64,000 bases of DNA from assembly GCA_050084515.1 (NCBI GenBank), contig CM114271.1:5332001-5396000 (forward strand), in the 5' to 3' direction. The position numbers and the translations under genes are program-made. How positions within the stretch are numbered: the stretch's first letter is position 1; every line of letters begins with the position of its first letter. This DNA comes from Blasia pusilla (Eukaryota). Shown one piece after another: positions 1,059 through 51,667 of the stretch. The notes under the pieces were generated by a model. The model ran no database searches and had not been told where the DNA came from. It saw only the letters and a program-made list of their open reading frames with translations.

Positions 1059-4000
1059 TCAGCCAGCCTTCATCTTTGGACTCCTCATCCTTGGACTCCC
1101 TCCTTGAGAAGAAGAGGAAGAGGAGGATAATGAAGGTGGAAGTTTTTTAGAACCTTTTTGTTGGTCCATATCAGCAACATCCTTGTTAAAAGCCTCAGCT
1201 AGAATTTCCTTCAATTCCTCTAAGCGCTGCTTCTTCAATGACTGCTCCTCTGGCTGTCCTCTATCATAACTGATAATATCACCCATGTCGTCATCCATAT
1301 ACTTATTCACTAGCATTGAACACCGAGGGAAAAACCGGTGTCCTAATTCCACTGCAACCATCCCAATCATCCACAATGTCAGGAATGTGATACACGAGTT
1401 TCCTAACTCGCAAACTACTTTCTCTGACTGAGGGGACCTTAAGCAGGGATCTCAAAGGGCCATGGGACTTAGTTTTGCAAGTTGTACATCAGTTGGACAA
1501 GAAAAAACCTCACCAGCAAGGGCCTAAAAGGACCTTTGTGCGAGAGAAACAATGGGAAGGAACACCTTGAACATAAAAAAAAGGTGGCTCTCCCCCACTG
1601 CATCAGGGTTGCATGAGGGAAGGAATAAACCTACGACCCAGAATGAAACACTTTGAATCCCTCCCTCTTGTTATAAAAATGACAAATCATTATTTGAAGA
1701 AGTCAAAACTTAGCATGTGACCGGTTTCAACTAGAATGACAAAAGAGATGAGAGCAACAGAACCTGCTCTTACAAGCGCACTAACTCTTTGAAGGAGTCC
1801 AGCATCCAAACCAGGCTCAGGGCTGTCAGAACTTGTATCATTGTTTGAAACAGCCCGCCTTGGTGGTAACTCTTTTCTAGCTGTTTCACACAAAAACAGA
1901 CAGCTTTAGATACTATAAAGATGAATTTCATGACCAGTAAGGCTAGAAAGAAACCACCAGACCTCTGCTGATAATAGCTGTGGAGACTTACGCAAATAAA
2001 GAGGCAAAGTGGATGTTGGAGGTTGGTCGCAAATGGCCAGTTTTTCGACTCCTGTGAACTCAGCTGTCGACTCCAGGTGTGAAAGACTTATAACAATTTG
2101 CGCTTCTCGAGGGAACATTACCTTGGCCAAGCTAACTGTCAAAGAAAAAAAACACTTCTGAGATCACCTTATGTATTGCTTAATGTCTACTGTGAAACTA
2201 TGTAAGATCAAACTAAAAACAATATACTATAAGTACCAAATAGTCGCTGAAGCTTAAACGTTTTTTAACATGTCAGAGACATGTTTTTTAACATGTCTAA
2301 TGAGATGGGGTGAGATTGATTGTGCTTTCAAACATACATAAAATGATTCCTCTCATAGACACCACAATCCCCTTCAACCTTTTAAAAAGAAGGGCATTCA
2401 TATTGAACTCTGACCTCGATTCTCCAAGTAGAGAAGTTTCTGCACTAGCTCCTTCTCAGAGGTGACTAACATATTTTTCACCTCCCGGAAGGACTTAGAG
2501 TAGGTAGTCTGAGCCTCAGCTTGCTCTAGCATTTCAAGGCATAGTTTAGCCTTCTGTGTCTCCTCATCAGCCACACCTCCATCTTTCTCTCCCCTTCTCT
2601 TAGTTAGTCTCTTTACAATATCTGCACCTGTTCTACCATCCGGTGTGGTTACCTTCGATCGTGCTCCTTTTGAAAGGAGCCCCGCAAGAATCTCTGGTTC
2701 TCTCCTCATGCAAGCAATGTGGAGCACTGTCAAACCTCTACAATCCAACTTAGTTGGGTCCAACAATCCCAACTCAAGTAGTTCCCTCACAGTCTTTTCA
2801 TCACAGTACGCTGCCGCATAATGCATGCCCTGTACATCATCAAAGCTTACGTTTGCCTCTTTCAGTAACAGCAGTACCAGTTCCACATCATCAGAGTCCA
2901 ACGCCCTCTGCACTCGCCCGGCCTGTTTTTCTCTGTTCTCTTCTTCTTCAGATGGCATTCTCAACCCAAGTCTGCTTCGGCAATCCTTGACTTCCTGTGC
3001 GAGCTCTTTATTTAAAAGCTTCTCTAGATTGAGAAAGCTCCAGGAATCTTTGGCCAAAGTCTCCAAACAGCAGCTTTGTAACCTTGTGGCTCCATGGGTC
3101 TTTCCAACCATAATCATCAACAAGACATAGTCTGCAGGGATTTTCTCCACCAAGTTCAGCAGGTGTTGCTGCAACCAAACATGACAAAGAGGAATCATAA
3201 ATTAGAGAGGAACTTTGTAACATCTCTCTACACTGATACCAGTGAGCCTCACAGGCAAAAGGTGCCCGTTGCAGTCAATGTAAACCTACCCATCTCACAT
3301 TCAAGCCCAACCTAAAGATTTGCAGCAAAGGTCTGACCACTGACATTTCTGAAACCAACCTAAGACTCCCATCCTCTGCTGAAACCAATGAAGCCGTGTT
3401 CTTCACACATTGTTCTTGGGAGGCCTGTATCGCCCACTCTGACCCGACGATTTCTTCCTGCTTAATACCCCTTGTAAATGCTAGACCAGATAAGGTGCTT
3501 TAATCCAAGAAGTTCGCTCAAATTCAGACCGGGGAGTGTCTGAAGCTCGAGATCCCCCATCTGGCTCCATGAATAAACGCTCCACAATTCTCAAACGTTC
3601 AAAGTACACGGTCCTAGAGATAGCTTTCAACACTGGGGTATTAATAGAAGAGCAGGTGAGAAGTTCTGTAGACACGTCTGGAGATTGGAACCAATAAAAG
3701 CAATCTTTGAGGCCCTCCCTGGTTGTTTCAGACGTAGGAGTCAAGAGGTAAGGGGTTGCTTGGACTTTGAGTAATCAATAAGCTTACTACCATTGAATGT
3801 GTTGCAGCAAACAGTCTTCGACAAGAAGTTGTTCACCATGGTAGGACTCCTGATCCGAGGCATTCAAAGGATCACTGTCAGGTTATGCGTTTCTCAAAGC
3901 ACAAATACATTGCTCCAAATCAGAATAAGATGTCACGACACAGAGCTCATCGAACTGACTATGCGATCATCACAGACACTACCAAGGCAGGGACAATACC

Positions 4001-5931: not shown

Positions 5932-6444
5932 TTTTACAAGCACAAACACACATACACATCTCGCCAAGATCGTTTTTGTAGTCGTTTGGCCGACTCTTGC
6001 ATCAGCTGCTTCTGAGCTGAGCCCAAGGTCAGAGGGTCTTTTGTTTTGATTTTGATTTGATTTTGATGGGTTCTGCTCCCCGTGCCATGAGCGTTTTGGG
6101 GTCCCATGGGAGGGGAGCGCTTCAAAAAGCAAGAAGTCAGGAAGGAGTGAGTCGTGGTGGTCAAGCACGTCGTGCGTGCTGCCCACTGGGCTCCAAGCTG
6201 GTGGGGTGCGAATTCGTGGAGTCGCCACATCCCACAGTGCTGAAGGAGGCCTGGAGCTGTTACTACTACTACTGCAGCTCTCGAGTCCATAGATTCTCGG
6301 GGGTACCCACCCAACTGACATTCCTTCGTGTGCCACATTCCTCCACTGGAGATTCCACCATCAACATTCAATGCAAGCCTCCAAACACTCCAACCATTCC
6401 CATCTCTGCACATCTTCCCTCTCCACATTTGCAATCTTTTTGCT

Positions 6445-6900
6445 CTCAATCTCTCCATACCTTCGGAGGTAGACAACAACACAAAACTGCCCAAAACAAT
6501 AACTTCTCAACAACTTCTCCTCCTTCTTTCCGATCTCATTGCCCTCAATCTCTCCATGACTTCGGAGGTAGACAACACAAAACTGCCCAAAACAATAACT
6601 CCTCAACAACTCCTCCTCCTCCTTTCCGATCTCAATGCCCTCAATCTCTCCATGACTTCGGAGGTAGACAACACAAAACTGCCCAAAACAATAACTCCTC
6701 AACAACTCCTCCTCCTTCTTTCCGATCTCAATGCCCTCAATCTCTCCATACCTTCGGAGGTAGACAACACAAAACTGCCCAAAACAATAACTCCTCAACA
6801 ACTCCTGATCCTTCTTCTTCTTTCCGATCTCAATCTCTCCATACCTTCGGAGGTAGACAACACAAAACTGCCCAAACCAACAACAACTCCTCCTCCTCCT
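6445..6900. repeat. Tandem repeat, ~96-bp unit, ~4.7 copies
   Basis: The anchor ctcaatctctccat recurs at 6445, 6544, 6640, 6736 and 6829 (spacings 99, 96, 96, 93). Confidence 0.95.
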
Positions 6901-7072
6901 CCAATGAGTGAGCTACGTCTGCCCAACCCCATGAGCAGAGAAATCCCATCATCCAAACTCCTCAACACAAAGCTGCCCCAAACAACAACTCCTCCTCCTC
7001 CTCCAATGAGTGAGCGACGTCTGCCCAACCCCATGAGCAGAAAAATTCCACCATCCAAACTCTTCAACACCA
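6880..7072. repeat. Tandem repeat, 102-bp unit, ~2 copies
   Basis: ccaatgagtgagc..cgtctgcccaaccccatgagcaga occurs at 6901 and 7003. Confidence 0.9.
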
Positions 7073-9790: not shown

Positions 9791-11758
9791 CTCATCATGT
9801 ATTGTATCCCACATAACACATTTGTTCAAATAACTCCCCGGTATCATGGAATAGCTTTTGTTCCTCTCAATATGTGCATAAAGACTTCCAAAGTTAGCTA
9901 GGGCATATCTAGAAAAATATAATCTTGCTAATAATAATAGACTTCCAAAAATGCGGTAGTAATGATAGTATCATCATCATGAAGATTAGGTATTCCATTT
10001 TTTTACAATGGAATATGTCACATCTTAGTTAACCGACAGGTAGAGTTTTACTACGTCGACAACATAGAGGGAGAGATGGCTTTCCCAAGGCATCTTTCTC
10101 ATGTTGGGCCTTAGGAGCATCTCTCTTGCTTGTTTATGTGGGAACTAAGATGCTAGCCTCTAGATTTCCTCATAGCATAGGGTGGATGTGGCTCAATATG
10201 CCAATGTAGATTTAAGAATGGAGTTCTTGCCATGTGAGTCGTTCTTACTATTGTGTAGTCTCGATGTATATGTGTGAGTACGTATATTTTGTTTATGAAT
10301 GGATCAACCCATGTATTGGAAAAATTAATGTGGTGTTGTATGTAAATATGACCATCGATATGGATTGTGTAACGATGTGTATGCGCACAACAAAAAGTCC
10401 CAAAAAATCATGATTAGCAAGTTTGATGTTTAATAATAGATCCTAAAAGGAAAGGATAAATCATGTACTAAGTGGTATAAATAAAGTCTTCCCTTTCTTC
10501 GTTCATATAGGAGATCCTCATTGAGTGGAACTAAAAATTGACTAACAATGTAGCAAATTGAGCTGGTGTGTTGTAAGTGACAATGATTGGAAATAGACGA
10601 CAAAGTAAAGAACTCTGTTGTATGAATAGACATCTCTACCAACATACATCGGTTATCATGCACACAAGTCTAAGATCCATCTAATTGTGAATCCTAACAT
10701 GTCCACACATAAATAATTGGACAACCCTAATATAAAGCTGATATAAAATGTAAAATTTGCTAAGGCTTGCAATGAACTATGATTCATCCAAACATCCACT
10801 CAATGATATAGACTATGGTAACAATAGAAGAAAGTCTGAATTATACTCTCAATGTGTGTGATCGCCGATCAATCCTAGCCCACTCTCCAAGAGAGAATCG
10901 AGGCTCAATACATGCAAGTTGTATTGTATCACGTATCCCAACATGGGTTTGATCCAAGGAAGATGAGCTCTAAAATTAGATTCATCTGAGGTATTACCCC
11001 CTTGGGCACCTCCATGGGTGATCTATACACATAGGTAACCTCCTTGTAGCATGTCACTAACGACCTGGAGTACAAAAGGTACTCACTCCCTAACAACTAC
11101 ACATATGATCCTCTCATGAGACTAACTTCCAACTAACCCTCGACTCTATAGGCCCAAATGGCTCCACACAAAGGATGGGAGGATCAACCTCTCCAAGATT
11201 GTCACTCCTCATAAATGAAGGATAATCTATATTCATAGATCACCTCATAAGAGTAGGTCATATGTAAGCTCTCAAAATAGGGAATTACAAGATCCCTTTA
11301 AGGCTTTGATACTATCTCATCCTACGTCTCATCTACCATGACAATCCATACGGACTGTAGAAGCCTCTTCAAAGCAAAAGAACACTTCCCTATCATCCTC
11401 AAGAACTCCCAATTGGATAGTAGCGAGGGTGAGACACGAGATGTGAGATGCGAGGAAGTTTAAGCATTTCAAGTGATGATGGTCATAATCGAGTAATCTA
11501 GGACCAAACGCGAAGCAAGACTTGAGGACTTGGAATTTGACTAGCGTTTAAGGTAATAACAACCAGACCCAAGGTGCATTTGAGATGAATAAGATGGTGT
11601 TGGAAAGCTTATGCAAAGACGATTCCAAAAAATCAAAGATCCACACAAACGCATAAATAGAGATAGAAAAACTTCCCCTAAATTATAAGATTGGTAGTTG
11701 GGTTGAGGGCCAAAAGATGCATCATAAGAGAACTTTATCAAAGTTTGGGAGGGGATGG

Positions 11759-11874
11759 TGTCGTGCGCATACACATCAATACACAACATACATCGATGTT
11801 ATCAAACACACACGATCCCATGCTAACTCATGACATCCATATACAGAGGCGAGAAGTACCAAAATATCTCCAAT
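11759..11874 (-). repeat. Repeat B2 (116 bp), 3' terminus of the retroelement, ends ...GCACGACA
   Basis: Direct copy of 12390-12517, which has ~12 extra bp in a CA-rich tract. Confidence 0.9.
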
Positions 11875-12387
11875 TAAAGTAAGATCTAATCTCTCTCTAC
11901 ACCATCTCACACCATAGCTCTCAAAGGTGTGAAACTCTCTCTCATGTCAAACCAAACCCACTCTCCTAATGAGAGGCTTGGGTTACACTCACAAGGCAAG
12001 GGACCATAGCTCCGCCGCCTTATGCCAAGAAGTTCGACAAAGAGAGAATGAGCTCTCAAGCTTCCTCTCTTGGAGGTATACCCCCTTCCCTCTCCCAAGC
12101 CCTCTCAATGGTAACCTATGCTCGTAGGTCATCTCCTTGGCTCTTGACCTACTCTAGCGGGTCAAGGGCCACTTCCCAAAGTGGAAAGCCAACTATCCCC
12201 AATATGATAGCTTACCCGAAATAGTAAGTTTCTCTATATGGCTCCAAATGAGCCGAAATAAGGGAAAACCTGCTCTCTCATGTTTCTCGGGGCCTCAACA
12301 GGTCATTCTCGACCTCTTGGGCATGTCCTCCACTACTCGTGAAGACGCTCTGCTAGATCCCACCGATCTATCCTAGCAGTCGTGACA
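11875..12387 (-). repeat. Repeat A2 (513 bp), LTR-like, begins TGTCACGAC
   Basis: Direct copy of 18964-19476, with roughly 30 differences by eye (~94% identity). Confidence 0.93.
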
Positions 12388-12389
12388 GT

Positions 12390-12517
12390 TGTCGTGCGCA
12401 TACACATCGCTACACAACATACATCATTGTCATCAAACACACACACAAACATACACGATCCCATGCTAACTCATGGCATCCATACACAGAGGCGAGAAGT
12501 ACCAAAATATCTCCAAT
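12390..12517 (-). repeat. Repeat B1 (128 bp), immediately after a PPT-like tract and separated from A2 by a 2-bp AC spacer
   Basis: Minus strand reads CAGCTAGGGGGCG|ATTGGAGAT...GCACGACA|AC|TGTCACGAC. Confidence 0.9.
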
Positions 12518-12702
12518 CGCCCCCTAGCTGGTGGTTAGGTCCCTCTAACTCTACATAGCCATCTATCCCTACCTACCACAACATACATCTCTAGGACGCT
12601 AAGAGCAGAAAGATCGGGTGCTAATGTGGCCCCATCGTTAGTAGCCTTCCTGTCATCCATGTCACAAAAAAAGTCGGAATCGAAACCTACCTAGTATCTC
12701 CT

Positions 12703-14130
12703 CTATGTACATCTAGGACACATCCATCGTCCCCGAGGAACCCTAGTGAGAGGTGGCGTCAGACATGCCATATGCCAACCTCTCGAATATCCATCATAGA
12801 CTAGCATCGTGGCCGCACCACGGGCAGAACCACACAACATACAACGTAAGCCTGCAAGAACTACTGCTAAGCTCAGATCTACTGTACCATCAATGTTAGG
12901 AAGGTGACATGACGCACAATTACGCACATGGTCCTTCCATACCATACTATCGCGTCCCTCCAGCAAGAGAACATCGGATGGCAAAACGTCATGCACTCTC
13001 AGGATAGTGCGCCCTGCAGTCACATCCAACGTCGTCGGTGACATCTACTACAAGAAGATATAATCTCCTTGATGAAAGCTCTGGATAGCTGGTCGATAAC
13101 CACCACCCCGAATAGTCGTATACCTCAACGTATCTTGATGTTGTGCAATCTCCAAGTTCTCGAATGCCATGGGCATCATTCTCTGAAATAATTCAGCCCT
13201 CTGAGAACATGCTCGCATCCCTACATCTGGGTCATCAAGGTCTAGCACCTCACCAGCATCTCGACGAATGGCCGTAGGTAAATCTGGCTCTCGGCCATAA
13301 AGTAGCAAGTACGGTGAAAAAGACGCTAAGGATGCATGTCTGCTGAATCTGTATCCCATCGCCAACCATGGTAACTGGAGGTCCCAATCTCCTAGGTGAC
13401 CTCTATGCAAGCCATACTTGCGTAAATCCCTCTTCACCGTCTGCACAACTCTCTCCGCTAATCCATCCGCCTCGGGATGATCTTGCGAAGTCGTGCGGTG
13501 GTCGATCAGCGCCTGATCACACAAGGCTTGGAACTCACCGCAAAACTCGGTACCCTGGTCTGTCAACACCTCAGCCGGTGCGCCATGATGACTCAGCACT
13601 TTGTCAAGGAAGTCATAAGGTATTGCCTCACTCGCTTTGTCAGGCAATGCAACCAACTCGATCCACTTCGAGAAGTGCTCGACCATCACCAACACATAAC
13701 GATTGTGACGCTCCGTCAAAGGCAAAGGTCCTGCAAAATCCAAACTCCATCTATACATAAGCCCATGATCGGTAATGGATGCAACTATGGAGTCGGAGCA
13801 TTGAACGATGCTCAGACCCGATCACACACCATGCACCTTGTAACAAACTGTTGAACGTCAGTCTACATGCCTCGCCATCAATACTAAATCTGGAGCAATC
13901 TATACGTCCGCTTCACCCCAAAGTGACCCAACTCCTCGTGGGCATGCTGCACTAGTCGTGCTCTATGCAAAGGATGCGGCACTACGCGTACGCTGCCATC
14001 CTTCGAAACCCTCAAAACATGTATTCCCTCCCAACGGAACCGTCTGGCCTGCTGTAGGATCCGATCCCACTCTCTAGCACCCACAGTGCTCGCAACGTTG
14101 CCAGTACGAAGGTACTCCAAGACTACTCCA
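12703..14130 (-). pseudogene. Gypsy-type DDE integrase with H2C2 zinc domain, GPY/F-like region and C-terminal PHD finger
   Basis: HAHEELGHFG...CMVC (H2C2); SLDFAGPLP, VLTDQGTEF and GLAERVVQTVK (rve core); CMLC..LVYDGYSRGWHMACL..WMCPRC (PHD with two Cys changed to Tyr). Several in-frame stops. Confidence 0.93.
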
Positions 14131-14289
14131 TCGTCATGAATATCTCGGCCACTTTTGGACTCCTCACTGGTCTCGGGATCCAAGGACTCTCCACTAGACC
14201 TCGCCACGAAGTCTCCACACTCTGGCTCTCCATAGCCAACATGCCTAAATAGTCTGACGCTTGCCATCTTGGCACTGACTCCTCATCAC

Positions 14290-14565
14290 TCTCTCCATGC
14301 CATCGTGCTCCAGTTGCATCTCGCTGACTTGGGCATGGATTACGACTCAACCCATCTACATCCTGGTTGAGCATCCGAGGTCTATGTACCACTTGAAAAT
14401 CAGACTTTGTTGTTGTACAACTTGAAAATGGACTCTGTTGTTGTACTCCTACAACAACAAAGTCCATCTCGCAACCTTCCATGTAAGCTTGTCGGACTCC
14501 ATCAACCACTTCATTGGTTGATGATCAGTGATGATGGTAAAGGGGTTGCCGAATAAGTAACACCT
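14290..14565 (-). pseudogene. C-terminal remnant of retroelement RNase H
   Basis: RCYLFGNPFTIITDHQPMKWLMESDKLTWKVARWTLLL and DFQVVHRPRMLNQDVDGLSR match the gypsy RNase H C-terminus. Confidence 0.85.
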
Positions 14566-14851
14566 CGCTCCACGCGGTCTACACGTGTGCATCTGCCAAT
14601 CATCGAAGCTCCTCAGTCGAGCCCCACAGCGGCACCTCTCCTCCACGGAATGATGCGGCTACCATAACACTCCTCTCCATAGAAATGTCAGGAACGGGAG
14701 TATCCTCTACTTGGACATGTCCCTCAATCAAATCACTAGGCCAAGTGATGGCACTGCTAAATGCTGCTAAGGTTGCCATCTCTCCTGGCCATTGCTCGAT
14801 CAATGCACTTGTGAATCAAACGGGTAATGAGCTAAGGCGCCCATCATTTGA

Positions 14852-15691
14852 CTACCATCTTGGTTTGTAGGACGTTGACTCCTCCCAATAATCCAGGGCA
14901 AACCCCATAGGGTATAACACTACTCCACCAACCAAGACGTCGTAGGACTCTGCATCAGTCACTATCGCCTTGGCTCGCATCACGGACTCCTCTGTAGGAT
15001 GTCTCGGGCGAATCCTCACCACGACCTCCTGTCGGGTGATATATATTGTGGTACTAGCTCCACCCAAAAATTTTGTATCCGAAATGGACAATGCTCCACA
15101 TCGGCTCTCGTCAAAACCCATCCTCAATGACGCTTTCCCCAACATCAGGGGTTGCGCTCCTGAATCCAACAAGACACGCTGCGGACTAAAAGCTCTACCT
15201 CCATGACTCACCAACAGGAAGACCTCTCCTCGGTTATCCACCAACACAACACCATGAGAAGCCATGGCACGCTCTATCGCGGGTCTAGCGGGCATCTCCG
15301 CCATCCTAGCAGCCGCAGCTTGCCATGAATCCGACGTGGACGGCCGGAGCATCCGCTCCAAGGGCAGGTCCATCACCTCCTCTGCAATCACCTCTAAATA
15401 TGATGCAAGAACTCCAACTCCACGCTCATATAGCGTAGCGGCCAGCCGAAAAGCCTGGGCGGGCGTACCCCCCAACGTCATAACATCGGAAGCAGAAAAT
15501 AAAGGAGCTCGGTATACAATGGTGGCCGCCCCCAACAATGTGCTCGACACATGCCCCTCATGAGCATCAATAATAGGAGTCATCGCACTCGCTTCTCCCA
15601 TCACCCTCCGTGCCTGCACACCAACAACACCACCAACTCTCGAGGAACTCTGATCAGGACCCATCGATGGGATCCTCATCGCCTCGGACAA
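14852..15691 (-). pseudogene. Retroviral-type aspartic protease region
   Basis: Active-site motif RVLLDSGAQPLMLGK and C-terminal YDVLVGGVVL (DxLxG). Confidence 0.85.
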
Positions 15692-15733
15692 CGTGAAAGA
15701 CTAAGGAAGCCTAGTATATTTCCTGGCTTCCCC

Positions 15734-17263
15734 TCAATGTGGATCCAACTCTACGGCTGCTCCACGCGTCACAACTGCGGCTGCCGCCATCTGGGCAACC
15801 CCGCACATCCAACCAGGATCCTCCATATCTCTGGCTGCTCCATATGATGTCGATGCCACGGATCCAGCATCGTGTAATCTCAATGCCATAACGGCAATTT
15901 GCTCCTGTAGCTGATGTATCTTAGAAGCCATCCTAGCCTCATGCTCGACATCTCCCTCGACGCGTCTAGGTGGTAGGACTCTACCTCCTCCACGGGCAGC
16001 TCCACCACGGTGTCGGGCAACTCCAGCTCCTTGTCCCCCAACGGGACCACCTGGTGCACGATCTCTAGACCCACTCGGACCGGCTACTCGCTCTGGTGCC
16101 CTCTCTGGCCCTCTGTCCGGACGTAACTCTGGATGTAGACTGAAACATCTGGCGCGTGTATGACCATACCTTTGACAATAGTCACACTGATAACCTCTTG
16201 GTGTAGCACATCTCCTCCTCCATGCTGAGGCACACGTCCATGACCTTGACGAGTGCAATCGCGTTGATGATGGGCTCCACCACATGACCAACAAGTGATA
16301 GTAGGTGGCTGCTGTTGAGCCGCATATGAAGGCGCAAGTCTCTATGGCACGGCCTCTCGGTATCCTCTTTGAGCTCGTGGTGCCACAGTCGACCTATCTC
16401 GGAGTCCACCTTGCAGGATAGGTGGTGCACACAATCACGACTGCTCTCGCCCAGAACCCATGATGGCTACGCTCTCCTCCGCAATGTTGCGCTCAATATT
16501 CTTGAGGTCCTAAAAACATCTCTCAATATAGGGGAGGTGTTCATAAGAAACATCCCCTCCCGCACCCGTGTCCGTAGGATCCGGTCCAACATCGCATACC
16601 ATGATTGGATAGCCTGAGCCTCTGTCACCCCTCAGTGACGTTGTTCAACCGACGCAAGGGAGTGTAAGCCTCACGCAAACTCTCACCCGGGCGCCTCTGG
16701 AAGTCGTGGATGCTCCGCAACTTCTTTGTCCGTACCCCTTGGTAGCTTGCCCTCAACTTAGCAAAGAACTCAACCACAGGGTTGAACCTAGGACGAACCC
16801 GACTACACGGTGCAACTTCTCCCGTGCGAGTGACCCCTCCTAAAATGTCACAAGTGGAAGAGGAAGTAGCCTCTCCTGTCTCCTCCTCCTCATCTGGGAA
16901 CCGCTTCGTCCATGACACATAATGTGGGTCATAATAGAGCCTCCACGCCTCGATCTCACATGCATATCTCTGAGAGAACTCATGGTAATCGTCCATGGGC
17001 GCTCCCTCTAAATGGTGGAACATACCATTCCATGCTATAAACGGGTTGAACTCTCTAGAGTTCCTAGCCCATTTGGAATCGCACCAACTCCTAAACTCTG
17101 CTATGAAATCGTGCAACTCAATCGTACCTACTGCACTTGAAAACCTACGCGGTCCTCTACCCCGGTCATCCATCTCGTACACCCAACTGGTAGAACCACT
17201 CACAATGTGTGGCGATGTGCTCACAAACTTCTCTACACCCTCCCCCTTGTCCGGCGATGACAC
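15734..17263 (-). pseudogene. Gag remnant with CCHC zinc knuckle
   Basis: Gag-like FQRRPGESLREAY segment; CDYCQRYGHTRARC (CX2CX4HX4C) at 16145-16186; frameshifted. Confidence 0.8.
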
Positions 17264-18948
17264 AAAAGGAGGTCGAGATGGTTCCTCACGTGGAGACCCT
17301 CGAAACCTCGCGCCACTCCGCGTAAAACCTCTAGAGCTACTCTCGGGTTCACCACCTCGCCTCTCAAAGTTCCGAACGGACGTCGTGATGACCCTCGTGC
17401 CCCTCTCACCCGATCACTCTCACCTTGCGAGTAATCCCTGAATCTCTCATCCCAAACATGCTGCACTCGATATACACTCTCCCTCTTCAAGATGTGTAAC
17501 GTGCGGCAACAAGCGGCGTGGTGCAAAAAATCGACCAAGCTATCATCTCATTGACAACCTACCCTCAACTCCAGACATCCCACATAGGTCTATGTCCCCT
17601 AAACCACATACATAAATGATGCTCTCAACATCCACACAACCCAATATCCCCAAATAAACTACCCAAATCCCACAATCCCTCACACGTGCAGGGTAAAGGA
17701 CCAAAATGGGTAACCTGAACACATGTCGATGTCGCTCCTCAGCAACTGCAAATCTCGACCCCAACTCAGTCATGAAGAGAACTCCTCCAATCAGCAAGTC
17801 ATACTCCTCCCGTACTGACGCTGCTCAAAACTCCTCGATAGACAGTGTGGTTCCAACAGAACGGTGGGGCGTTGCAGGCGGCACCGAACGGCATGGCCCT
17901 CGATAGTGGGATGCGGCACTCAGCGGCATACCCTCCTCAATCAGCAATAAACCCACACTCTGATCCACAATGACGGTGCGGATCCGGGATCGAGATGGTG
18001 CGGTGCGGCCATGACGCGACAATCGGCGGCGCATTGCGGCTACATGCGTCACGACACGGTTCTCAATCGTCGTCGAGCGGCTACCAATCACAACATAGCA
18101 GTATGAAATCACAACTCAAACACCATAACCGGAGGTCATCTTCCATCGGTGGTTGATGACAAAATTGCAATGATGATGGCGGCCAAAACAAAGTATGTGG
18201 TGACGACACAAGTCAGAGAATCAACGAACGTTGTGGAAGACCCTCCACTCCGTAACGGCAGCAATGGCAACCAAAGGGTGGACAACGGACGGTGGACCAT
18301 TGACGGTGATGGTTGACCCTTGATGGTGACGGCCGACTAGTGACAATGACGTTTGACCATCGATGGGGACTATGATGGCGACGGCCGCCGCTGGCGTGGC
18401 GGCTGGTTTAGGGTTTGAACAATTTAACCCTAAAAATCGCCTATCAATGGTAATTTTGCAAGATTGACCATGACTTTTTGCTCGCAATCCAAATTGCACA
18501 TTGTTTATTGCACAGCGTGCAAAGCTTCATGATCTACAAAATTGTTAAAAGATATTTAGAATCGAACATTCCAGTAAAAACTGACAGGGACTGTTGTAAA
18601 GCCCAATGTCTCTTTCTCCTACACAAAATTTGGCACCGCTTCCGCGCTGATTTCTCCCAACAAAAATGTAAAACATATAAAAATAAAAATCAGCAAGCTA
18701 CATGGTACTTTCAAGAGCACCAGCATGGGGCAAACCGCCCCCATAATCAATCTCTATCAAAAATTGTGCAGCACTTCCGCGCGCCACTCTTCCACACGAA
18801 AAATTGGCAAATACAAAGAACAATCAAAGCAGCCCTTGCTCCGGTGAGCACTCCCATGAGCTGCTGAATGGGGAACACGGTCCTCAACCTGAAAAAACAG
18901 CGAGTGACCAGCGAGCTCCCCCATGAAGCTCTCTCACTCTCTCATTCT

Positions 18949-18964
18949 CTCATTCTCTCTTTGT
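18949..18964 (-). other. Putative self-priming primer-binding site (complementary to the element's own predicted transcript 5' end)
   Basis: Minus-strand ACAAAGAGAGAATGAG at the end of A1 is the exact reverse complement of CTCATTCTCTCTTTGT at 19140-19125, which starts ~25 nt downstream of a TATA (19165-19168). The pair is conserved in the other two copies. Confidence 0.7.
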
Positions 18965-19476
18965 AAAGTAAGATGCAATCTCTCTCTACACCATCTCACA
19001 CCATAGCTCTCAAAGGTGCGCACTCTCTCTCATGTCAAACCAAACCCACTCTCCTAATGAGAGACTTGGGTTACACTCACAAGGCAAGGGACCATAGCTC
19101 CGCCGCCTTATGCCAAGAGGTTCGACAAAGAGAGAATGAGCTCTCAAACTCCCTCTCTTGGAGGTATACCCCCTTCCCTCTCCCAAGCCCTCTCAATGGT
19201 AACCTATGCTCACAGGTCACCTCCTTGGCTCTTGACCTACTATAGCGGGTCAAGGGCCACTTCCCAAAGTGGAAAGTCAACTATCCCCAACATGGGAGCT
19301 TACCCGAAATAGTAAGTTTCTCGATATGGCTCCAAATGAGCCGAAACGAAGGGGAAACCTGCTCTCTCAAGTTTCTCGGGGCCTCAGCAGGTCATTCTCG
19401 ATCTCTTGGGCCTGTCCTCCACTACTCATGAAGACGCTCAGCTAGATCCCACCGATTTATCCTAACAGTCGTGACA
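18964..19476 (-). repeat. Repeat A1 (513 bp), 5' LTR-like terminus containing a TATA and the predicted TSS
   Basis: Begins TGTCACGAC at 19476; matches 11875-12387, 62144-62664 and, more divergently, 60949-61463. Confidence 0.93.
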
Positions 19477-21532
19477 ATGGAGATAAATATGCATACCTTA
19501 CATCTAGATATGATGATGTCTCATCAATGGTATGCGTTGCTTTTGGTGTATCACTTTTTTTTGTTACTTTAAATGATATTGCATTAGATCCCTTTGATAC
19601 ATATTTATATAAGTATGTAACTACATAAACATTACTTGTCATCTTGAAATTAATATGAAAATAAAAAAGTGTGCACAATAATGGATTGTAAGGCACCACC
19701 CAACAATTTTCTAATGAATGTTTGGGCTTCATTATCGCTCGCCCATTATTCATTTTACAAAAATACAATAATAATTCATGAATACATCATCTTAAATGTC
19801 ATGGAACAAGTAGCCATAAGCAAAATTAGATTGATAAGTATGTGCAATATATTGGATAATCATCATTTCTCTATGTAGTGTAAATTGCAAAAGCTTTAGA
19901 ATAGCCTTTTGTACATTGTTTTGGTTCCTTATCCATAGATTATATGTATGGCTTTAATGGTCCACATCGACAATGAACCATGCAATTAGAAACTGTGGAA
20001 TAAAGCCTTGGACAAGTAGCTTGATTAAGGCCAAAACCACAATTATATTGTCCTATTTAGAAGTGGTACGTAGTTTATCTTCACTTCCTAAGATTATAAG
20101 AATATCCACATGCAATAGATCTCTATTTTAAAAAATTCTGAATACATGATGCAACTCGACCCAATATATGCTTGTTGATAATACGTTATAACAAATTTTT
20201 ATTATTCTTCCTCTAAAAAACTCTCACAACCAAATTTGGTCGGCTCGCAACATATTGACCAGATAATAAGGCTGATGTGATCTCCTCCGACTTACGATTG
20301 CATGTCATGTTTGGTTTAGATGCACCCATGATAATCACTGCATCTCTATAGTGGCATAGAGGTCAACCATGTATTCTTAAGTAAATCGATCAAACTATAG
20401 TATTTCATTATCATCTTTGGCACCCTTTCTGTATAGGAGTCAAAAACTTGCAAGGCCGTCATACTTTTCCTTTTTATCTCCTCAATAAGATCACCATCAA
20501 ATTTATCCTCATCCATGCAATCATCTTAAATTTGAGAGTCTTCTACCCTCCAATAATTAACACTTATTGGGTGTTGCATAGTTTAATAACTTTGGAACCT
20601 ATGAAAGGGTATTATAGGATGCCAACTTGCTTCACCATAAACAAACAACCGAACAAAATGTAATGGCATATATACTTCATTCGGCTAAGATAGATGCCTT
20701 ATTCCTTCTCCATGAAGTCATACAACTATCTCACGATACTCAATGTGTTTACTTCCATCACTTGGTAAAATAGCCGCTATCTCAGAAGCAACTAGTAGGT
20801 TATAACACTTTCCATCGAGACCTCTTTTACTGGCCTTTAGGATGATTCGTATATTAAGGTCAATTGCTTCATATACCAAATGCTGGAAAATCTTCACATA
20901 TAGATTGCATTAGTGAAACACATCTTCTAGATCTTTCAATATCTCTAATTTTAGTTCAGAAGACCTTGACATCACTCTTTCATGATGCATCAATTTATTT
21001 GTTGATTCATGAATATAGAGTTGTGAAAATTTGGGATGATCCCCTAAATTAAGATATAAGAGACCAATAGAACGATAAATCCCAACTTGAAGTATCCAAT
21101 GCCAACAACTTGCTCACTTACATGCACTATAATAGATTCTAATTGAAGTGTTGAAATATAAGGTCAAGTATTAGTAAGAAAATAAAGACTTCTCGAACCA
21201 ACGCCAAAGATCAACGATTTCAAGAAAGGAAGAGATGATATGAGGAGGGGCAGATTTATGCTCATGTGCATACGACACATACCATATGGCGAGTCAAAAA
21301 ACTTTGTATCTATCACTATTTCACACTTCCAATATAAAGCACAATATGGTAGGTATGTTCTTGTCATAGAACCCAATGTATGACGATCACTGGTACAATT
21401 CAAACTCTTTTTTAGCCACAACTTCCTAATATCACTTTCTTCGAAGTTTGGTCTCCTTGCAAGATTAAACAATGTATTTACTGTGATAATTCTATCAACA
21501 TTAGACATAGAATGAAGTGTAGAGCCATTTAG
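19477..21532 (-). pseudogene. Helitron RepHel remnant (N-terminal zinc-finger region and Rep motifs), interrupted by the retroelement
   Basis: HTLGSMTRTY..YCALYWKCE..GMCRMHMSINLP (N-terminal Zn region); KPNMTCNRKSEEI (motif 1, ~20290-20330); F*NRDLLHVDILIIL (decayed HUH, ~20090-20135); NCWVVPYNPLL..HINFK..YLYKYVSKG..YLDVRY (motif 3 region, 19477-19768). Same orientation as the helicase piece at 9549-9790. Confidence 0.85.
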
Positions 21533-35149: not shown

Positions 35150-37810
35150 TCTTGAAAATGTTCAATGCAAGATGCCCATGGAGAATGTGCGCAACTTTTT
35201 CATACGAGATTACAATCTTTTCTGGCACGTTTCATATTTGGCGGTCCAAAGATACTTCGTAGAGTGCTCCATTATTAACTTAGGTATGAACTACAAGGTC
35301 GAGGGAGCCTACATTGCCACATGATACTATGGGTTGATGAATCAAATATAGAGAACATAACATTAGAGGTAGCTGCATATATCCCTTTAACTTCTGAATC
35401 AACTTCATCTGCACCACATGAGGTGTCAACACTTTCTTCAGATGACCTTCTTTCACAATATCTCTTAAATAAGAAATTACATAGGTGTAAAGAAGGGGTG
35501 TGCATTATACGCAAAAGAAATCAGAAACTTTATTTCCACCTTGGATTTCCCTCACCTCTAAACCAACAAATTCAGCCATATATTGATCCAAATACCATGA
35601 GATGGAACTATTATCGACCATCTCTACAGCATCGTAACGTAATACCATACCATCCTTTGATCTTGCTACTATGGGGAGCCCACATGAACATACAATGGGT
35701 AACAAACACTGAATGGTCCTTCTATCTACTAAAGTATGCCCTTAAATTTGAACCAACAGGTTCCTTAGACATTGACACTGACACTGCATGATGCATAGGA
35801 TTAGGAGGATTAGATGAAATCAAGCTCAAATTAATTTCTGGAGTAGTCCTCAATAGATCTATTTCCTCAATAGATGCCGCATTAACCTCTGTGCAAATAC
35901 CGATTATTTATCGCTCCCAGGCTGTTCACTATGTTGACTCCAATCCGCCATATTGACGCAACTCCTTATACAAGAATGCTTATGTTCCCTGCATTCATCC
36001 TGTTGTCCTATATTCTAATAGGCCACTATAGCTTTATCACATCGTATTTTGTGTGTACTGGTCAAATTACAAATTATCCAAAGTTTATCCTGTTAATATT
36101 AATAAGTTTGTTTCCCTAGACAATCTTGGAAATATTGTGTTACATACAAACCGTATTGTGTAATTTACTGAGTTCCACCCTCTCCATCAATGGAACGAGT
36201 TTTTTAATACAGCCTTGCTACAAAGAATTTCATTCAGATTTGAACATTCTCTTCTATCTTCACACTTCCAATCCTTGACATATTTACATGAGTACATGCA
36301 TAGGAAAATAATCAATGGAATTGAGGATGTTTACACTCTTGTTAAAGCCCACGTAATGAAGAATTTATGGGGCCAAGTTCATATTTCAGAGATTCTTGCC
36401 AAAATTATTGACATACTAAAACCCGAACTAGATGTCAACATTAGTGATATGCTCCTGAACTATTCATGCCATAATACTCGATCTTCATCATCAGGTAAGG
36501 TCCATATCCTAGACAACGATCTCTCTACTCTTAATGATGAGTAGTTAGTTCTTTTTAATACTCTTCACAGCCTTACGTCAGGTCGTATTCTTCTAAAAGG
36601 TCCACCTGGTTGTGGTAAGATATATTTCATAACATTCATGCACAATATATGGACTCGGGCAGGGATGAGCCCATTGCTAACAAAAACTACAGGCATTGCT
36701 GCTGTTAGACTTCACAATGAGGCCACCACTATTCATTCTGCCTTTGCTATACCCATAAAAGATGATCTCCCAACAATGCATCCTAGTTCTGATACTTATT
36801 TTAAGTTGAAGTTTTCTCACGTAATTGTTATAGATGAGTGTTCAATGCTGACACCGAATATTCTACAAATAGTTCCAATGCGGTTGTATGAGGTTTGTAA
36901 TAATGATCATATGAATCCATTTGGTAACAAGCTTGTGATTTTAGTCGGTGACATGTGTCAGTTACCTCTAGTATATAGCCATAAAACCAACCATAACTAT
37001 AAAACCTGCCGCTTGACATCCTCAAAATTCTTCCATAATATCATAACCTTTGAATTTCCAACTCCAGTGAGGCATTCAAATGACCCAGACTACCTTAAAT
37101 TTCTTAATTATGTTAGAAACACACCGCCTACACAATTTGACCTTAACAATCGTTTGTCAGAGTATTTTGTTTCAGAAAATGAAGCTATTGATTTCATGAA
37201 TCTTGACACAACAATTATATGCACGCAATGTGAAGATGTGTCAATTTTCAATGTACTTGCTTTAAGACGTCTGATTGGGGATGCATCTATTGTAAAGGTG
37301 TTTGTTACATCAAATGCTCCGCTCACACCTGAATTTAGTGCTTGGTTAGGCGACACAACATTCCATCAATTGCCATATGGTGCCTTGCATTCAGTTGTTA
37401 TGCTTACTTCAAATGTCAATCCAAGGTTGCAAGTTGCCAATGGCTCCTTGGCAAAAGTGAGACTTAATTTACAATGGTGAGGACTTGGTAGGTATTATGG
37501 TCACCATATTATGAAGCAATAAATCTTTGCTTATTAGTAGATCAAAATTTGCAACTCTTAGGTATGCATCCCAATAGAAGTATGTTAAAAGGACATTCCC
37601 ACTAACTCTTGGATATGCAATGACGGGTCACAAGAGTCAAGGTTCAACATTTATGGACCTTGTCTTTTGGTTATCAAGTCTGTATTTGCTATAGGCCTTG
37701 CTTATGTTATATTATCTAGAGTAAAGGCAAGAAACTAGCTAAATTTTGTTGGGGAACTACATCCTAAAGATTTTCATGTATTTGGACAGGATAATCATCA
37801 TTTGCAAGAT
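35150..37810 (+). pseudogene. Helitron RepHel (HUH Rep + Pif1-family helicase), disrupted
   Basis: ELQGRGSLHCHMILW (HUH, 35288-35332); PYHPLILLLWGAHMNIQ..YLLKYALK; GPPGCGK (~36600); VIDECSM; LVGDMCQLP; FPLTLGYAMTGHKSQG; GLAYVILSRV. Contains stops and frameshifts. Confidence 0.92.
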
Positions 37811-42939: not shown

Positions 42940-44255
42940 TGCGTCTCTGTCTGTCTTTGTATCTGTCTCTGGTGACGTCTGGTGTGGGTTTCAGGGAGGA
43001 ACGGAAAACGATCGTACCGCTGAAAGCTGCGGTCAGAGATGTTGGGGGGTGGTTTGTGTGTTCTGCTGCGTTTCTTCTGAGACAGTTTAGAGTTTAGCGT
43101 CCCGATTAGTGAGTGACGGAGTAGGTACTCTTGGAGGTCCACTGGTGTGGGTCGCTTGCTAGCTGCCCTCCTTCCTCTTCCTGCATTGGGAATTTGAGGG
43201 GTTTTCCTTTCTTTCTTTGGGGCTGTTCAGGGATCATCATCGGATCTCTGGTTTGAGCGCTGGGGGTGGTGCTTCTTCGAAAGAGGAGCCGTTGGGCGAG
43301 GAAGAAAAGTGGCGGAGTTGGTGTGTGGTCATAAAGCTCCTCCACTGATTTCTCCCCTTCCACTCTGCTTCTCTCCAATTTTGGCGGTTCTCGTCAATCT
43401 CTTGAGACTCTCTCCCTCTCCCCCCCCCTTGATCCTGATGGGTTTTCCATCAAAGTTTCTATTAAAGTTTTTATATTCCTCATTGAGCGGCCATGGACAA
43501 TAAAGCACTGCACTCTCTCTCCATCTCTCTTATTTTGGAGGGTCTCTGTTGTTGAAGCTCTCGAGGTTCTCTTCTCTTACACACTCCAATTTTGGCAAGT
43601 ATACGACAGGCGCTACGTGAGGGGTATAATTGTCTGTCTCCGTGTACTTCACTTGCGTATAACCGGATAGACTAGAGGCTTGTGAAGCACCTTCTCACTC
43701 ACTCTCTCACCCGAAGGACCGCAGTCCCCTCGTGGGTCCCCATTGACAATCAATCAGTCAGTCTACTCCTACGATAGGAACCTCTGTCAAGAGTACAGCT
43801 TCTACGCGTCACTTGAGAGTCGGGCAGACTCCAGCCCTTGACTTCATTCAGACTGGACTTGGAACCTCCGTCTCTGCAAAACCTGAAGTGCCATTGCTAA
43901 CTGGAAATCCCGTGGTCAAAAAATCAGTTCACTGCATCCATTCGTTGATGGTTGCCTTATCGGTCCGGGCGAACTTCAGGTTGTGTTGTGGAAACAGTGG
44001 CCTCAAACCTCAATGCTGATGTCAATGGAAGGAAAGGTTGCGGCGCTGTCATGGGCAGGTGATGATGGGGGAAATCATTGTGGACTCATGTTTGAAGTTG
44101 CGGGTGTCGGTCTCATCTTGTCATCCTCTTGGGGAAATGTGGGAGACGTCGTCTTGGGGTGTAGATGAATTGTGATGCAATAATTGCTCTGGGATCCGGT
44201 CGCGTAAGGGCGGAGGCGGAGGAAGAGGAGGAAGTGGAGGGGAGGGGGAGGAGGG

Positions 44256-46345
44256 ATGAATGCGCGGAGCAGACTGGGGCTGCCATTTGTGCGTATTCGC
44301 ACACTTTTTGTAGCATTTGTGGTGTTTCTGGTGACAGGTCTCAGCGTTTCCCAATTCGGAAAGTATTTGAGCGCACCGTCACGGCAAACTCTGTTGTCGG
44401 AGAAAGGGCTTCCGGTTACTTGCGAGGGAAGATGGATATACATCTACAATCTGTCATCGGTTTTCAATCAGGATTTTGTGGCCAACTGCTCCACCTTCAA
44501 GAAGAATGTGGACCTCTGTCCATACATGGAGCACGGCGGAATGGGAAGAGCTTTTAATTACGAGCCAGAGCTCTTCTCTGGTGATGTCTGGTTCAACACT
44601 TGGCAGTTCAGTCTCGAGGTTTACTTCCATCAGCGATTACTGAATTACCCATGTATAGCTCATGCGGAAGAATTGGCAGACATTTTCTATGTGCCCTTCT
44701 ATGCTGGAATGGACTTGACCATGAGAATGACTCATCGGCAGCTGAAGAGAGACGCCCTCTACAAGGATCTTCTGGAGTGGCTGAGGGAGCAATTTTTCTT
44801 CAATCGTCATGGTGGCCTGGATCATTTCACAACCCTGGGGAGAATTGCTCTCGATTTCAGAAGACCCAAAGGCGATTCATGGGGCACTCAAGTAAGTGAT
44901 TTCTTCTTTCTCGTCCCTCCTCTCTAACCATTCATGGAACCTCTACATCTATTATGTCAAAGAGGGCACTTCATTGGGGTGTGGAGCACCTCCTTGCACC
45001 CCAAGTTCCATGATGAATTTCGTTGCATCCCCAGTTACATGCATAAGTTTCTTTTCATGACTACACCGCTGGAGCATCGATGTATGTACTCCATATCCAA
45101 GACAAAATGGTAACAGCATTCCCATAATGACTGGACAATTGATCACATGGTGGTAGCCTGCTGGTTTAAGATTGATCTTAGGGTAGGGTTTTATGTTACA
45201 ATCAGCTGAGGTTTGAGATGCATGAAATCCGTCTGACCCAGGACTGACTGGTTTGGCAACAGATTCGCCCTGTTCAGATCTGCACTTCATTGTGTTCAAC
45301 ATATCTCCTGCTCAACCAAATTTCCATTCAAACAAACTTACGGAGTATATGTTAATGTTGGATCGAGAAGTCATTGTTCAGATTTTTGTGAACCTCTTGG
45401 AGTGTACTGAAGTCAGTCTTTTGGGGTTTATCCTGTCTGCATGTGTGCAAGTTCCAATGTTTTGAAGGTCCTTCTTGTGCACCCCTACTAATTGAGTCTT
45501 GGATATGTCTGCAGATGCTTTTCCACCCTGATTTCAAGAATATGATTAAGCTAACTATAGAGCGAGATGGAGGAACTCCGAGTTATTCAAACAATGAGAT
45601 TGCTATCCCTTACCCTACCCACTTTCATGCCAGTGACGATGCACAGGTTGGTCAACTTATAAGTTGGGCAATGCAATCGACTCAGCGTTCTTCGTTTGTG
45701 AGTACAGCAGGAGTACGAAGGCAGCGGCTGGGTGGCATCAGGGAGAAGATTGTTAGGGATTGTGAATCGGATATGAGATGCACCTTGTTGTTATGTGAAG
45801 GACATGAAGGGATCAATCAAACTGACCTTAACCTTCGGTACCCAGGCAATATTCCCATAGCTGGACATAACCTTCATACATCATGCAGCTATCCTTCAGC
45901 AGTGCTGGATGTCTTCCACAACTCACAGTTCTGCTTGCAGCCTCCAGGAGATAGCCCAACTCGCCGATCCTTTTTTGACTCAATGCTGGCAGGTTGTATT
46001 CCGGTGATCTTCAAGCCTACAGCTGCATGGACTCAATATACCTCATTTCTCCCAGAAAATGGAGAGGGGTACTCTGTGTTGATTCCATTATCTAAAATTC
46101 GGAAAGAAAATGTCATTGATTTCTTGGCCAAAATTCCTCAACACAAAATCGCTTCCATGAGGGCAAAACTAGGAGAGCTTTTACCTCAAATACTGTATGC
46201 ACACGTCAGCAGGAAGTATTCCTTTGCAACCACTCGAACAAAGACAAAGCTGAGTGATGTTGAACAGGTCATGGAGACACCTGATGCTTTTGATATTGCA
46301 CTCCAAGAAGTGTACTTGCTGATTCAGAGAAACATGCGCTACTAG
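44256..46345 (+). CDS. GT47 (exostosin) clade A xyloglucan side-chain glycosyltransferase, MUR3/XLT2/XUT1-like (2 exons, ~488 aa)
   Basis: Exons 44256-44891 (donor GTAAGT) and 45515-46345 (acceptor GCAG) are in frame. N-terminal TM anchor; motifs CEGRWIYIY, FYVPFYAG, DHFTTLGRIALDFRR, IPYPTHFH and FCLQPPGDSPTRRSFFDSMLAGCIPVIF. Confidence 0.93.
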
Positions 46346-50300: not shown

Positions 50301-51667
50301 AATTCTGCATAAGTGCGAACTTCTCGGACACATTCTACTGGGCACGTGATTTCTGCCTCTGCCTCTCGAGCTTCCTCTGCCTGACCAGACAACAGCCCAA
50401 TCGAAAGTAAATAAAACAATTTGAGAAAACACAAGCCAGTCGATTTTCTGCAACTCACTCCTTAGCAAACTTTCCAACTTAGTGGGAAACCAATCCAGCT
50501 ATCTGCAAGGGCACTGTTCAGAGTTTCGTAAGCATTCCAAAAATGCACTTATTTCTCCAGCATGGGAGGCAAATCACTTGCAATTGGAACTTGTGCATCA
50601 CATCGCAGTGGACCCAATTGGCAGACTTGCTTCGAAAGTAGCTCAATGGCAGAGCAAACTGAATTCATATCAGCCAATTTGGCACTTCAGATCACAACAG
50701 GAGCAAAGATGGACCCAGTGTGACATCTGCTTCCAGAGCGTCCAAATTCAAAATAGAAATTGCAAAGGAAACTAAATTCACTGTCGCTGACTTGGCACAT
50801 CAGATCACAAGAACAAGACCAGTGCTGGAAGTGATTGGACAGAGCTGCTTCTGTAGTGGATCGATTCAGAATTGAACCTGAGGCTTTGCAGAGCGACCGG
50901 AATCCACAATAGCCAAAAATCCCGCACATCAAGCAGAGCAGAGCAGAGCAGAGCAGAGCAGAGCAGAGCAGCAGGGCAGGGCAGGGCAGACAGTGGGACA
51001 ATTGAAAATGGAAGATGCAGAGGGAACTGCATTCACTGCAGCCAAAAAATTCCGCACATGAAGCAGAGCAGAGTAGAGAGAGGGACAATTAAAAATGGGA
51101 CCTGCAGAGGAAACTGAATTCACTGCAGCCAAAATTCCGCACATCAAGCGGAGCACATTAGAGCAGAGCAGAGAGTGGGACAATTGAGAATGGAAGCTGC
51201 AGAGAAAACTGAAATCTCTGCAGCCAAAAACTCGGCACATGGAGCAGAGCAGAGTAGTATAGTTCGGACAGGGGCTAAATTGAAGATGGAACCTGCACAA
51301 GAAACTGAATTAATTGCAGTCCAGAACTACAAATTTGGCATTCCAGATCACGCAAGAATCAACAGCCACCGGTCAATCCACAACGGCAGCTGCATAGACC
51401 CACGACGCAGGGGGACTCAAGGCAGCGAAAATCAACTCCTACTTCTTGGCGTCGCAGACTCTCATTCAAGTGCAGCCTCCGGTCGATTCTCAGGCGCGCG
51501 CTCACCTCCATCCTCCTCCCGCATCCCTGAGCTGCACCATTACCAGCACCCAGGCGAGAAGGAACCCATCCACAGCTCCGGAGCCGCCGGCGATCCAGGC
51601 ATCCACCATAGACTATCTTCGTCGGCTGAGCGGACGGGGGCGCTCTGCGAAGCGCGCAATTCTCCAT
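47382..51667 (-). CDS. Plastid thioredoxin-like protein with CGSC active site (thioredoxin-like 4 / Lilium-type), 6 exons, ~199 aa
   Basis: Exons 51667-51506, 50380-50261, 48616-48539, 48404-48318, 48106-48053 and 47480-47382 are all phase 0 with GT..AG sites. Protein reads CPVECVREV..VVVDFYSSSCGSCKYI..FIKHNVHDEYD..IKTVPMFTFF..FPTRDK. The first (transit peptide) exon is less certain. Confidence 0.88.
50670..51350. repeat. Degenerate intronic tandem repeats (~90-130 bp) with (GAGCA)n microsatellite
   Basis: gccaaaaa..c.gcacat..agcagagc..gggacaatt..aatgg..tgcagag blocks near 50911, 51040, 51127 and 51222; (GAGCA)n at ~50932-50972. Confidence 0.75.

Follow-up and report, generated by a model that had tools for sequence, protein, structure and literature searches.

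Candidate self-priming and a permuted repeat layout in a Ty3/gypsy family with a Dnmt3-like methyltransferase from Blasia pusilla

It is taught that LTR retrotransposons and retroviruses insert the ends produced by reverse transcriptase (RT). The window analysed here, a stretch of 64,000 nucleotides of Blasia pusilla DNA, holds an element with gypsy-type enzymes whose direct repeats are split in the order A-internal-B-A-B, the order of PAT/Ngaro/TOC1-type tyrosine-recombinase retrotransposons, in which it is read as circular permutation. Where the first A ends, a 16-nt sequence is complementary to a site inside A. How does such an element start reverse transcription, and which of its sites does it present to its integrase?

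Anatomy of the element and its family

Copy 1 occupies the minus strand between 19476 and 11759, in the order A1, internal region, B1, 2-bp spacer, A2 and B2, flanked by CCAT duplications; copies 2 and 3 lie on the plus strand:

19477-19480, minus: left target-site duplication CCAT, matching 11755-11758
18965-19476, minus: repeat A1 of copy 1, beginning TGTCACG, with promoter and R/U5-like part; 94% identical to A2
19165-19168, minus: putative TATA, at a distance of 28 nt from the 16-mer and 31 nt from the predicted +1 A; identical spacing in copies 2 and 3
19125-19140, minus: predicted self-primer of 13-16 nt and putative transcript 5' end (predicted start 19140-19137), from pairing
19022-19041, minus: competing partner of the primer in the lowest-energy RNA fold
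18949-18964, minus: predicted primer-binding site (PBS) ACAAAGAGAGAATGAG, without TGG, from pairing and tRNA scan
15734-17413, minus: broken gag-like frames with a Zn-knuckle-like motif (PF16588 below cut-off; putative gag by position)
14852-15700, minus: protease-like frame, LLDSGA motif by eye, no Pfam match
14560-14566, minus: site of a deletion of about 2.5 kb, where full-length copies carry DNMT and RT
14452-14565, minus: RNase H remnant (PF17917, E 7.6e-9)
13051-14282, minus: broken integrase with H2C2 finger (PF17921, below cut-off) and DDE core (PF00665, E 1.6e-14)
12709-12843, minus: PHD finger 3' of the integrase (PF00628, E 6.9e-7)
12518-12525, minus: purine tract AGGGGGCG adjoining B1, putative plus-strand primer
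12390-12517, minus: repeat B1, 128 bp, terminal CACGACA
12384-12393, minus: putative internal attachment palindrome GACA-NN-TGTC, with AC as its spacer; undecayed copies have GC
11876-12387, minus: repeat A2, holding an unpaired primer copy (12037-12052)
11875, minus: one extra A at the A2/B2 joint, the first PBS base
11759-11874, minus: repeat B2 with a 12-bp deletion; right end CACGACA
11755-11758, minus: right target-site duplication CCAT
60949-61478, plus: copy 3, A1 from 60949, primer site 61285-61300, PBS 61463-61478; interrupted by copy 2 near 62143
62144-62679, plus: copy 2, A1, primer site 62480-62495, PBS 62664-62679; flanks AGCC/AGCT

The B-A-B end of copy 2 lies outside the window (locus L120). 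Full-length copies of this family (family 1) hold, in the extra 2.5 kb or so, a C5 methyltransferase (PF00145), whose best solved relative is DNMT3A (E 9e-11), and the RT, and the family keeps the Gypsy domain order RT-RH-INT. Judged by these domain matches, the window element belongs to a Ty3/gypsy family with a Dnmt3-like methyltransferase and a PHD finger. Elsewhere the window contains fragments of a Helitron-like Rep and PIF1 helicase (35279-37480, plus), an exon of an NPR1-like ankyrin protein (2398-3201, minus), a gene for a GT47 exostosin glycosyltransferase (44208-46345, plus) and tandem arrays at 6410-7070 and 50887-51328, with periods of about 100 and about 87 bp.

We searched the host genome assembly (390 Mb, 26 contigs), in which family 1 has thousands of search candidates. 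B adjoins A2 on its downstream side in 29 of 30 B1/A2 loci, and stands directly upstream of A1 in 2 of 30 A1 loci. The family layout is A1-internal-B1-A2-B2, with TG..CA ends and 4-bp target duplications, which are exact in eight of the ten elements with both ends in hand and carry one mismatch in the other two; solo A-B units show an exact 4-bp duplication in 10 of 15 cases. Duplicated sequences are varied (GATC, ATGG, ACAA, ACTA, TAGA and CCAT among others), and both element ends were present in 6/15 regions of one sample and 2/12 of another. Because 4-bp duplications bound the element, its integrase uses the A start and the B end.

Within single elements, B1 and B2 have 47 minor alleles in common, where permuted pairs give a mean of 15.4 and a maximum of 34 (n = 29, with 10 of 39 loci left out where the motif was not located), in a test that subfamily structure inflates. 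A second set (n = 28) gave 13 shared alleles versus 10.4 permuted (p 0.18), and most B1 indels are absent from B2. Taken together, these comparisons weakly support a common template for B1 and B2. A systematic deletion within B2 was rejected as an effect of query bias. An intact A start is missing at 304 of 1017 sites where the purine tract adjoins B, a number in which decay and true single-repeat (A-internal-B) forms are inseparable; metagenome contigs reading purine tract, B and flank were set aside as likely collapsed repeats.

Several loci show other arrangements. Tandem junctions of purine tract, B, NN, A and PBS at L029/L117, L157 and L160 represent two elements with one intact B-A repeat in common. 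L118 is a short derivative (A1, about 670 bp, B) with an exact TCTA duplication; the L117 breakpoint resembles it, and the two possibly represent a miniature family. L362 (C1:7357100-7360400 of the host genome) consists of three tandem 1036-bp A-PBS units of family 3, the second family of the host genome, and an inverted family-1 A/B end. The small contigs C20 and C23 (L122-L125) carry C5 methylases unrelated to the element and C21 is tRNA-rich; they possibly represent bacterial and organellar sequence.

Pairing at the A boundary and minus-strand priming

In Tf1-type elements, minus-strand synthesis is primed by the 5' end of the element's own transcript, which is cut off first. The first-pass annotation had proposed this mechanism here from three 16-nt pairs, all of which we recovered by exact search of the window: CTCATTCTCTCTTTGT starts at 18949, 61285 and 62480, and the sequence complementary to it at 19125, 61463 and 62664. 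The same search placed a fourth copy of the primer site, without a partner, inside A2. The TATA, which the annotation had put some 25-30 nt upstream of the 16-mer, lies 28 nt upstream of it in all three window copies, and the distance from TATA to the first A of the 16-mer is 31 nt in each; in family 1 this TATA is the weak form TATACC. The complement anchored at the boundary measures 16 nt, versus at most 10 nt in 3000 dinucleotide shuffles of A, which speaks against the chance GA/TC match that the annotation had named among its possible refutations. The three 16-nt pairs are real and not a product of chance. The annotation had further held that priming explains why A ends exactly at this point; the joints described below support priming as what fixes the end of A, and they move that end by one base, to 18965, with 18964 as the first base of the PBS.

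The annotated lack of a TGG-type PBS was confirmed, with no TGG in the 50 nt around the A boundary. A scan of the site against 30 distinct tRNA genes of the host, a partial set of 15 anticodons lacking Met, gave a best 3'-end match of 2 nt and a longest match anywhere in a tRNA of 6 nt, and no host tRNA of the set fits. Priming by a tRNA at a TGG near the start of B was rejected as well (best match 5 nt). A tRNA or half-tRNA primer, or chance GA/TC complementarity, draws what plausibility it has from the partial tRNA set and the low-complexity family-1 site; given the missing TGG, the 2-nt match, the 3000 shuffles and helices in other families that are not GA-rich, we regard it as scarcely credible.

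Pairing was found to extend across the family. Among 30 family-1 copies picked by similarity to a query that itself includes both sites, all 16 pairs are intact in 18 and the 13 core pairs in 22, and the remaining 8 keep 12 of the 13 core pairs. The compensatory changes that had been suggested as a check are absent within these 30 copies. The comparison between families is the stronger test, and there the sequences differ and the pairing is kept. The helix recurs in five relatives with four other sequences: ACTCAAAGAACT, ACTTGACAAGAATGTC, ACTTTCCGAGAGTGAG and ACATGCGAAAAGAG, from other families, each have their own upstream complement. Family 3, with 764 exact A1-PBS junctions, and a close metagenome family pair AGTTCTTTGAGT with ACTCAAAGAACT, about 30 nt after TATAAGG, TATAGTG or TATAAAG, and helices of different sequence occur in the collapsed assemblies L234 (16 bp), L245 (16 bp) and L269 (14 bp). 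The PBS begins with AC in all families and loci with a helix. Four of the six families or loci have a TATA in register; none was found about 30 nt upstream of the primer in L245 or L269. The lack of a match in the partial tRNA set, the family-wide pairing and the sequence change between families with pairing kept all support self-priming, and on this sequence evidence minus-strand synthesis is very probably primed by the 5' end of the element's own transcript.

The helix might instead be a structural RNA element, serving packaging or a translation switch, with another small RNA or a protein as the primer. Folding gives this reading some footing in family 1, where a rival stem with 19022-19041 wins most folds: mean helix pairing probability is at least 0.45 in 6 of 30 copies and 0.02 in the window copy, in which forming the helix costs 7.2 kcal/mol. 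The helix pairing probability is at least 0.76 in 15 of 16 family-3 copies (2 of 18 loci left out, the motif not being located) and also in L234, L269 and L245 (16-nt start). No convincing helix was seen in four high-GC palindrome loci (L290, L291, L292 and L299), a further point for a structural role. Two observations count against it: the helix stops exactly at the A boundary in the three families with known boundaries, and the insertions at the joints are the first PBS bases. We judge a purely structural helix distinctly improbable.

The RNA evidence comes from three raw-read runs whose only tie to the family is a species label common to weak holders, most of their reads being 85-95% like the reference. 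First mates map mostly to the minus strand, which in most stranded libraries corresponds to sense RNA, and 47 reads of run X8 cross from A to the PBS. Read starts do not pile up at the predicted start in the three runs, as a structural helix would also allow; depth rises there from 154 to 197, 280 to 313 and 153 to 175, no more than it rises elsewhere. Depth is 3-19 over B2 versus 124-230 over the family-specific part of B1, a profile compatible with transcripts that end in A2.

The stretch just 5' of the primer can fold back on the primer, with z values of -2.6 to -3.2 for L234, L245 and L315; the fold is weak in family 1 and L312 (z -0.6 to -1.3) and absent from L269. This predicted fold-back could mask the 3' primer copy in A2.

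Joints, palindrome and a model of integration

Should the end of A be set by priming and the start of B by the purine tract, two RT-made ends would meet at the A2/B2 joint. There are 976 such joint sites, and the first 100 listed were counted by hand: 70 have no extra base, none is shorter, and the others carry A (26), G, AC, AG or ACAA (one each), with 28 adding the first 1-4 bases of the PBS. Incomplete primer removal would yield such bases, and about half of Tf1 cDNA is described as keeping PBS sequence at its end (PMC11042837). Two joints (L185/L227 and L244/L302) hold insertions of 17-19 nt with partial resemblance to the purine tract and to element sequence close by; L227 also has a shortened PBS.

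The palindrome GACAGCTGTC lies where B1 meets A2. Among 40 metagenome loci, which include duplicates, 9 have it exactly and 5 in decayed form, and it reaches elements whose RTs are about 36-47% identical to the query. Its spacer varies, with AC 15, GT 9, GC 9, AT 4 and other 2 in family 1 (37/39 GC, GT, AC or AT) and GC 13, GT 7, AC 6, AT 1 and GG 1 in family 3 (27/28). A control CAG site in B decays like the spacer, and methyl-C decay of GC would give all four common forms; the variable spacer was accordingly rejected as a mark of de novo joining. A 2-nt staggered cut after CA in this palindrome would leave a pair of ends with the shape of processed retroviral ends. Foamy-virus integrase is reported to cut a palindromic circle junction in this manner, after CA on both strands, with 2-nt 5' overhangs (PMC1180852).

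Two palindromes are present in a cDNA of the form B-A-internal-B-A, and cutting at the downstream one would produce the opposite permutation, A-B-A-PBS-internal-B. The canonical context gave 713 matches in family 1, versus 9 for the opposite permutation, which had 6 in family 3. None of these 15 candidates fits on inspection, all being tandem expansions or chance flanks; a nested insertion obscures the layout of L008 in this check. A plain two-repeat circle predicts both permutations, and since one was found, a freely used two-repeat circle is unlikely.

These features can be joined in one model. Pol II would start about 28-31 nt past the A1 TATA and end within A2, so B2 would not be copied from RNA. 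As in Tf1, the first 12-16 nt would pair with the PBS, be cut off and prime the minus strand, giving A its fixed end, and the purine tract would prime the plus strand and fix the start of B. The product of ends so fixed would be a linear cDNA, B-gc-A-PBS-internal-PPT-B-gc-A. Integrase would then cut each strand of the upstream GACA^GCTGTC just past CA, yielding two CA-3'OH ends with 2-nt overhangs whose insertion would make the 4-bp duplication. The RT-made ends would be joined before insertion, as a circle, or after it, forming the A2/B2 joint, and the downstream palindrome would stay as template for the next round. Because a single permutation was found, a step that prefers the upstream site is needed. 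More speculatively, that site may be chosen for being double-stranded kilobases of synthesis ahead of the other, or for its closeness to the plus-strand end; we favour the first, with capture of the site as soon as second-strand transfer has occurred and well before plus-strand synthesis arrives at the other site. The model as a whole, a self-primed Ty3/gypsy element whose integrase sites are uncoupled from its RT-made ends and which uses internal cleavage and end joining, is in our judgement likely on the sequence patterns.

Self-priming would also be right if RT made the A2/B2 joint itself by an end-to-end jump, a rolling copy from whose over-length cDNA integrase excises the unit without ligation. 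The precision of the joints, with no deletions in the first 100 listed, is what this predicts, and a 1-nt overlap on A would equally account for the commonest form. The 17-19-nt insertions look more like end-joining repair, however, and internal cutting would still be required, with the middle palindrome skipped. We consider rolling copying unlikely.

A further alternative follows the DIRS/PAT route, in which the transcript spans B2, the repeats guide a circle and integration is by a tyrosine recombinase supplied in trans. The A-internal-B-A-B layout is identical (legends of Fig. 1e and 4c, PMC5890265). The element differs from DIRS, PAT, Ngaro and TOC1 in its DDE (rve) integrase, TG..CA ends and varied 4-bp duplications; RNA over B2 is scant, and no tyrosine recombinase family matched in the 16 element frames scanned, which cover less than a whole element. 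This route seems very unlikely.

Extending the model of internal cleavage and end joining to the clade (streptophyte algae, bryophytes and high-GC hosts), we think it reasonably probable that the attachment site has moved off the cDNA ends into the templated palindrome GACAGCTGTC, that what integrates is a circularly permuted form of the element's reverse transcript, and that the element primes without tRNA independently of the Tf1 lineage. In this clade-wide reading, an obligate form of the once-proposed circle-junction route, the order of double-stranding or the element's own Dnmt3-like enzyme possibly picks one of the two identical sites.

Should the model be true, a large natural family integrates through an internal palindrome, and internal cleavage by a DDE integrase, so far seen mainly in vitro (foamy virus, HIV), is its normal route. 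It would supply a mechanism for a layout unexplained since 2018 and add one more lineage that primes without tRNA, although self-priming by itself would extend a known mechanism only modestly. It would also show why a family with more than a thousand copies in the host genome may be overlooked, or given wrong ends, by LTR-finding pipelines. We found no description of self-priming, of the palindrome or of such an integration route for this lineage in a literature search to which subscription journals and Repbase reports were external.

Kinship and comparison with known systems

Named relatives by RT come from Calypogeia and Marchantia (62-73%) and Sphagnum (70% over 40% of the query), and also from Klebsormidium and Closterium. 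A quick RT tree, built without a named Tcn1 or Tf1 row and with rows of short RT cover dropped (L305 and L269 included), unites all DNMT- or PHD-labelled rows in a single group of 67 (support 85), and three chromodomain-bearing RTs fall outside it. The K. nitens RT P0045, possibly that of KnitGypsy-Dnmt3, shares a group of 46 rows with the element (SH-aLRT 95). The element belongs with the Gypsy-Dnmt3 group, and its priming is probably Tf1-like, yet it is no Tf1/Tcn1 chromovirus. Streptophyte Gypsy-DNMT3 elements are also mentioned in a 2026 preprint. Three high-GC relatives, P0057, P0065 and P0066, have a long extension past the PHD finger with, by eye, adenine-methyltransferase-like motifs (VLDPW/F..., ...PP.), recalling the DAM-bearing LTR elements of that preprint.

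KnitGypsy-Dnmt3 of Klebsormidium nitens, given in a 2018 figure legend as having DIRS-like repeats with Gypsy domains, shares the Gypsy domain set, a Dnmt3-like domain in Pol and the A-coding-B-A-B repeats; its priming site, palindrome, duplication length and mechanism are absent from that description (PMC5890265).

With Tf1/Sushi, plant Tcn1 and the copia element TAR, the element shares a PBS complementary to a repeat site placed like a transcript start, and no tRNA (PMC6317226; PMC4600332, where self-priming is defined). Among plant elements, PMC6317226 predicts self-priming only for Tcn1 and TAR. Unlike Tcn1 and Tf1/Sushi, the element carries a PHD finger and not a chromodomain (Tcn1, 100% CHD; PMC6317226, file 3), and its duplication is 4 bp against 5 bp in Tcn1; it also has the DNMT, split repeats and a putative internal attachment site.

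Phygy and Selgy resemble it as non-chromoviruses of non-seed plants with 4-bp duplications (PMC6317226, file 3). They are listed there with tRNA-Trp or tRNA-Ala and no extra domain, in contrast to a site without TGG here, and Phygy targets NCGN, a pattern that the element's duplications do not follow.

The enzymatic parallel drawn here is foamy-virus integrase, which makes processed ends by cutting both strands after CA in a palindrome around a 2-bp centre (PMC1180852), as the element's integrase would do. The foamy-virus palindrome is made by joining RT ends, whereas that of the element is templated inside the repeat, and its joint of RT-made ends lies apart and would go unused.
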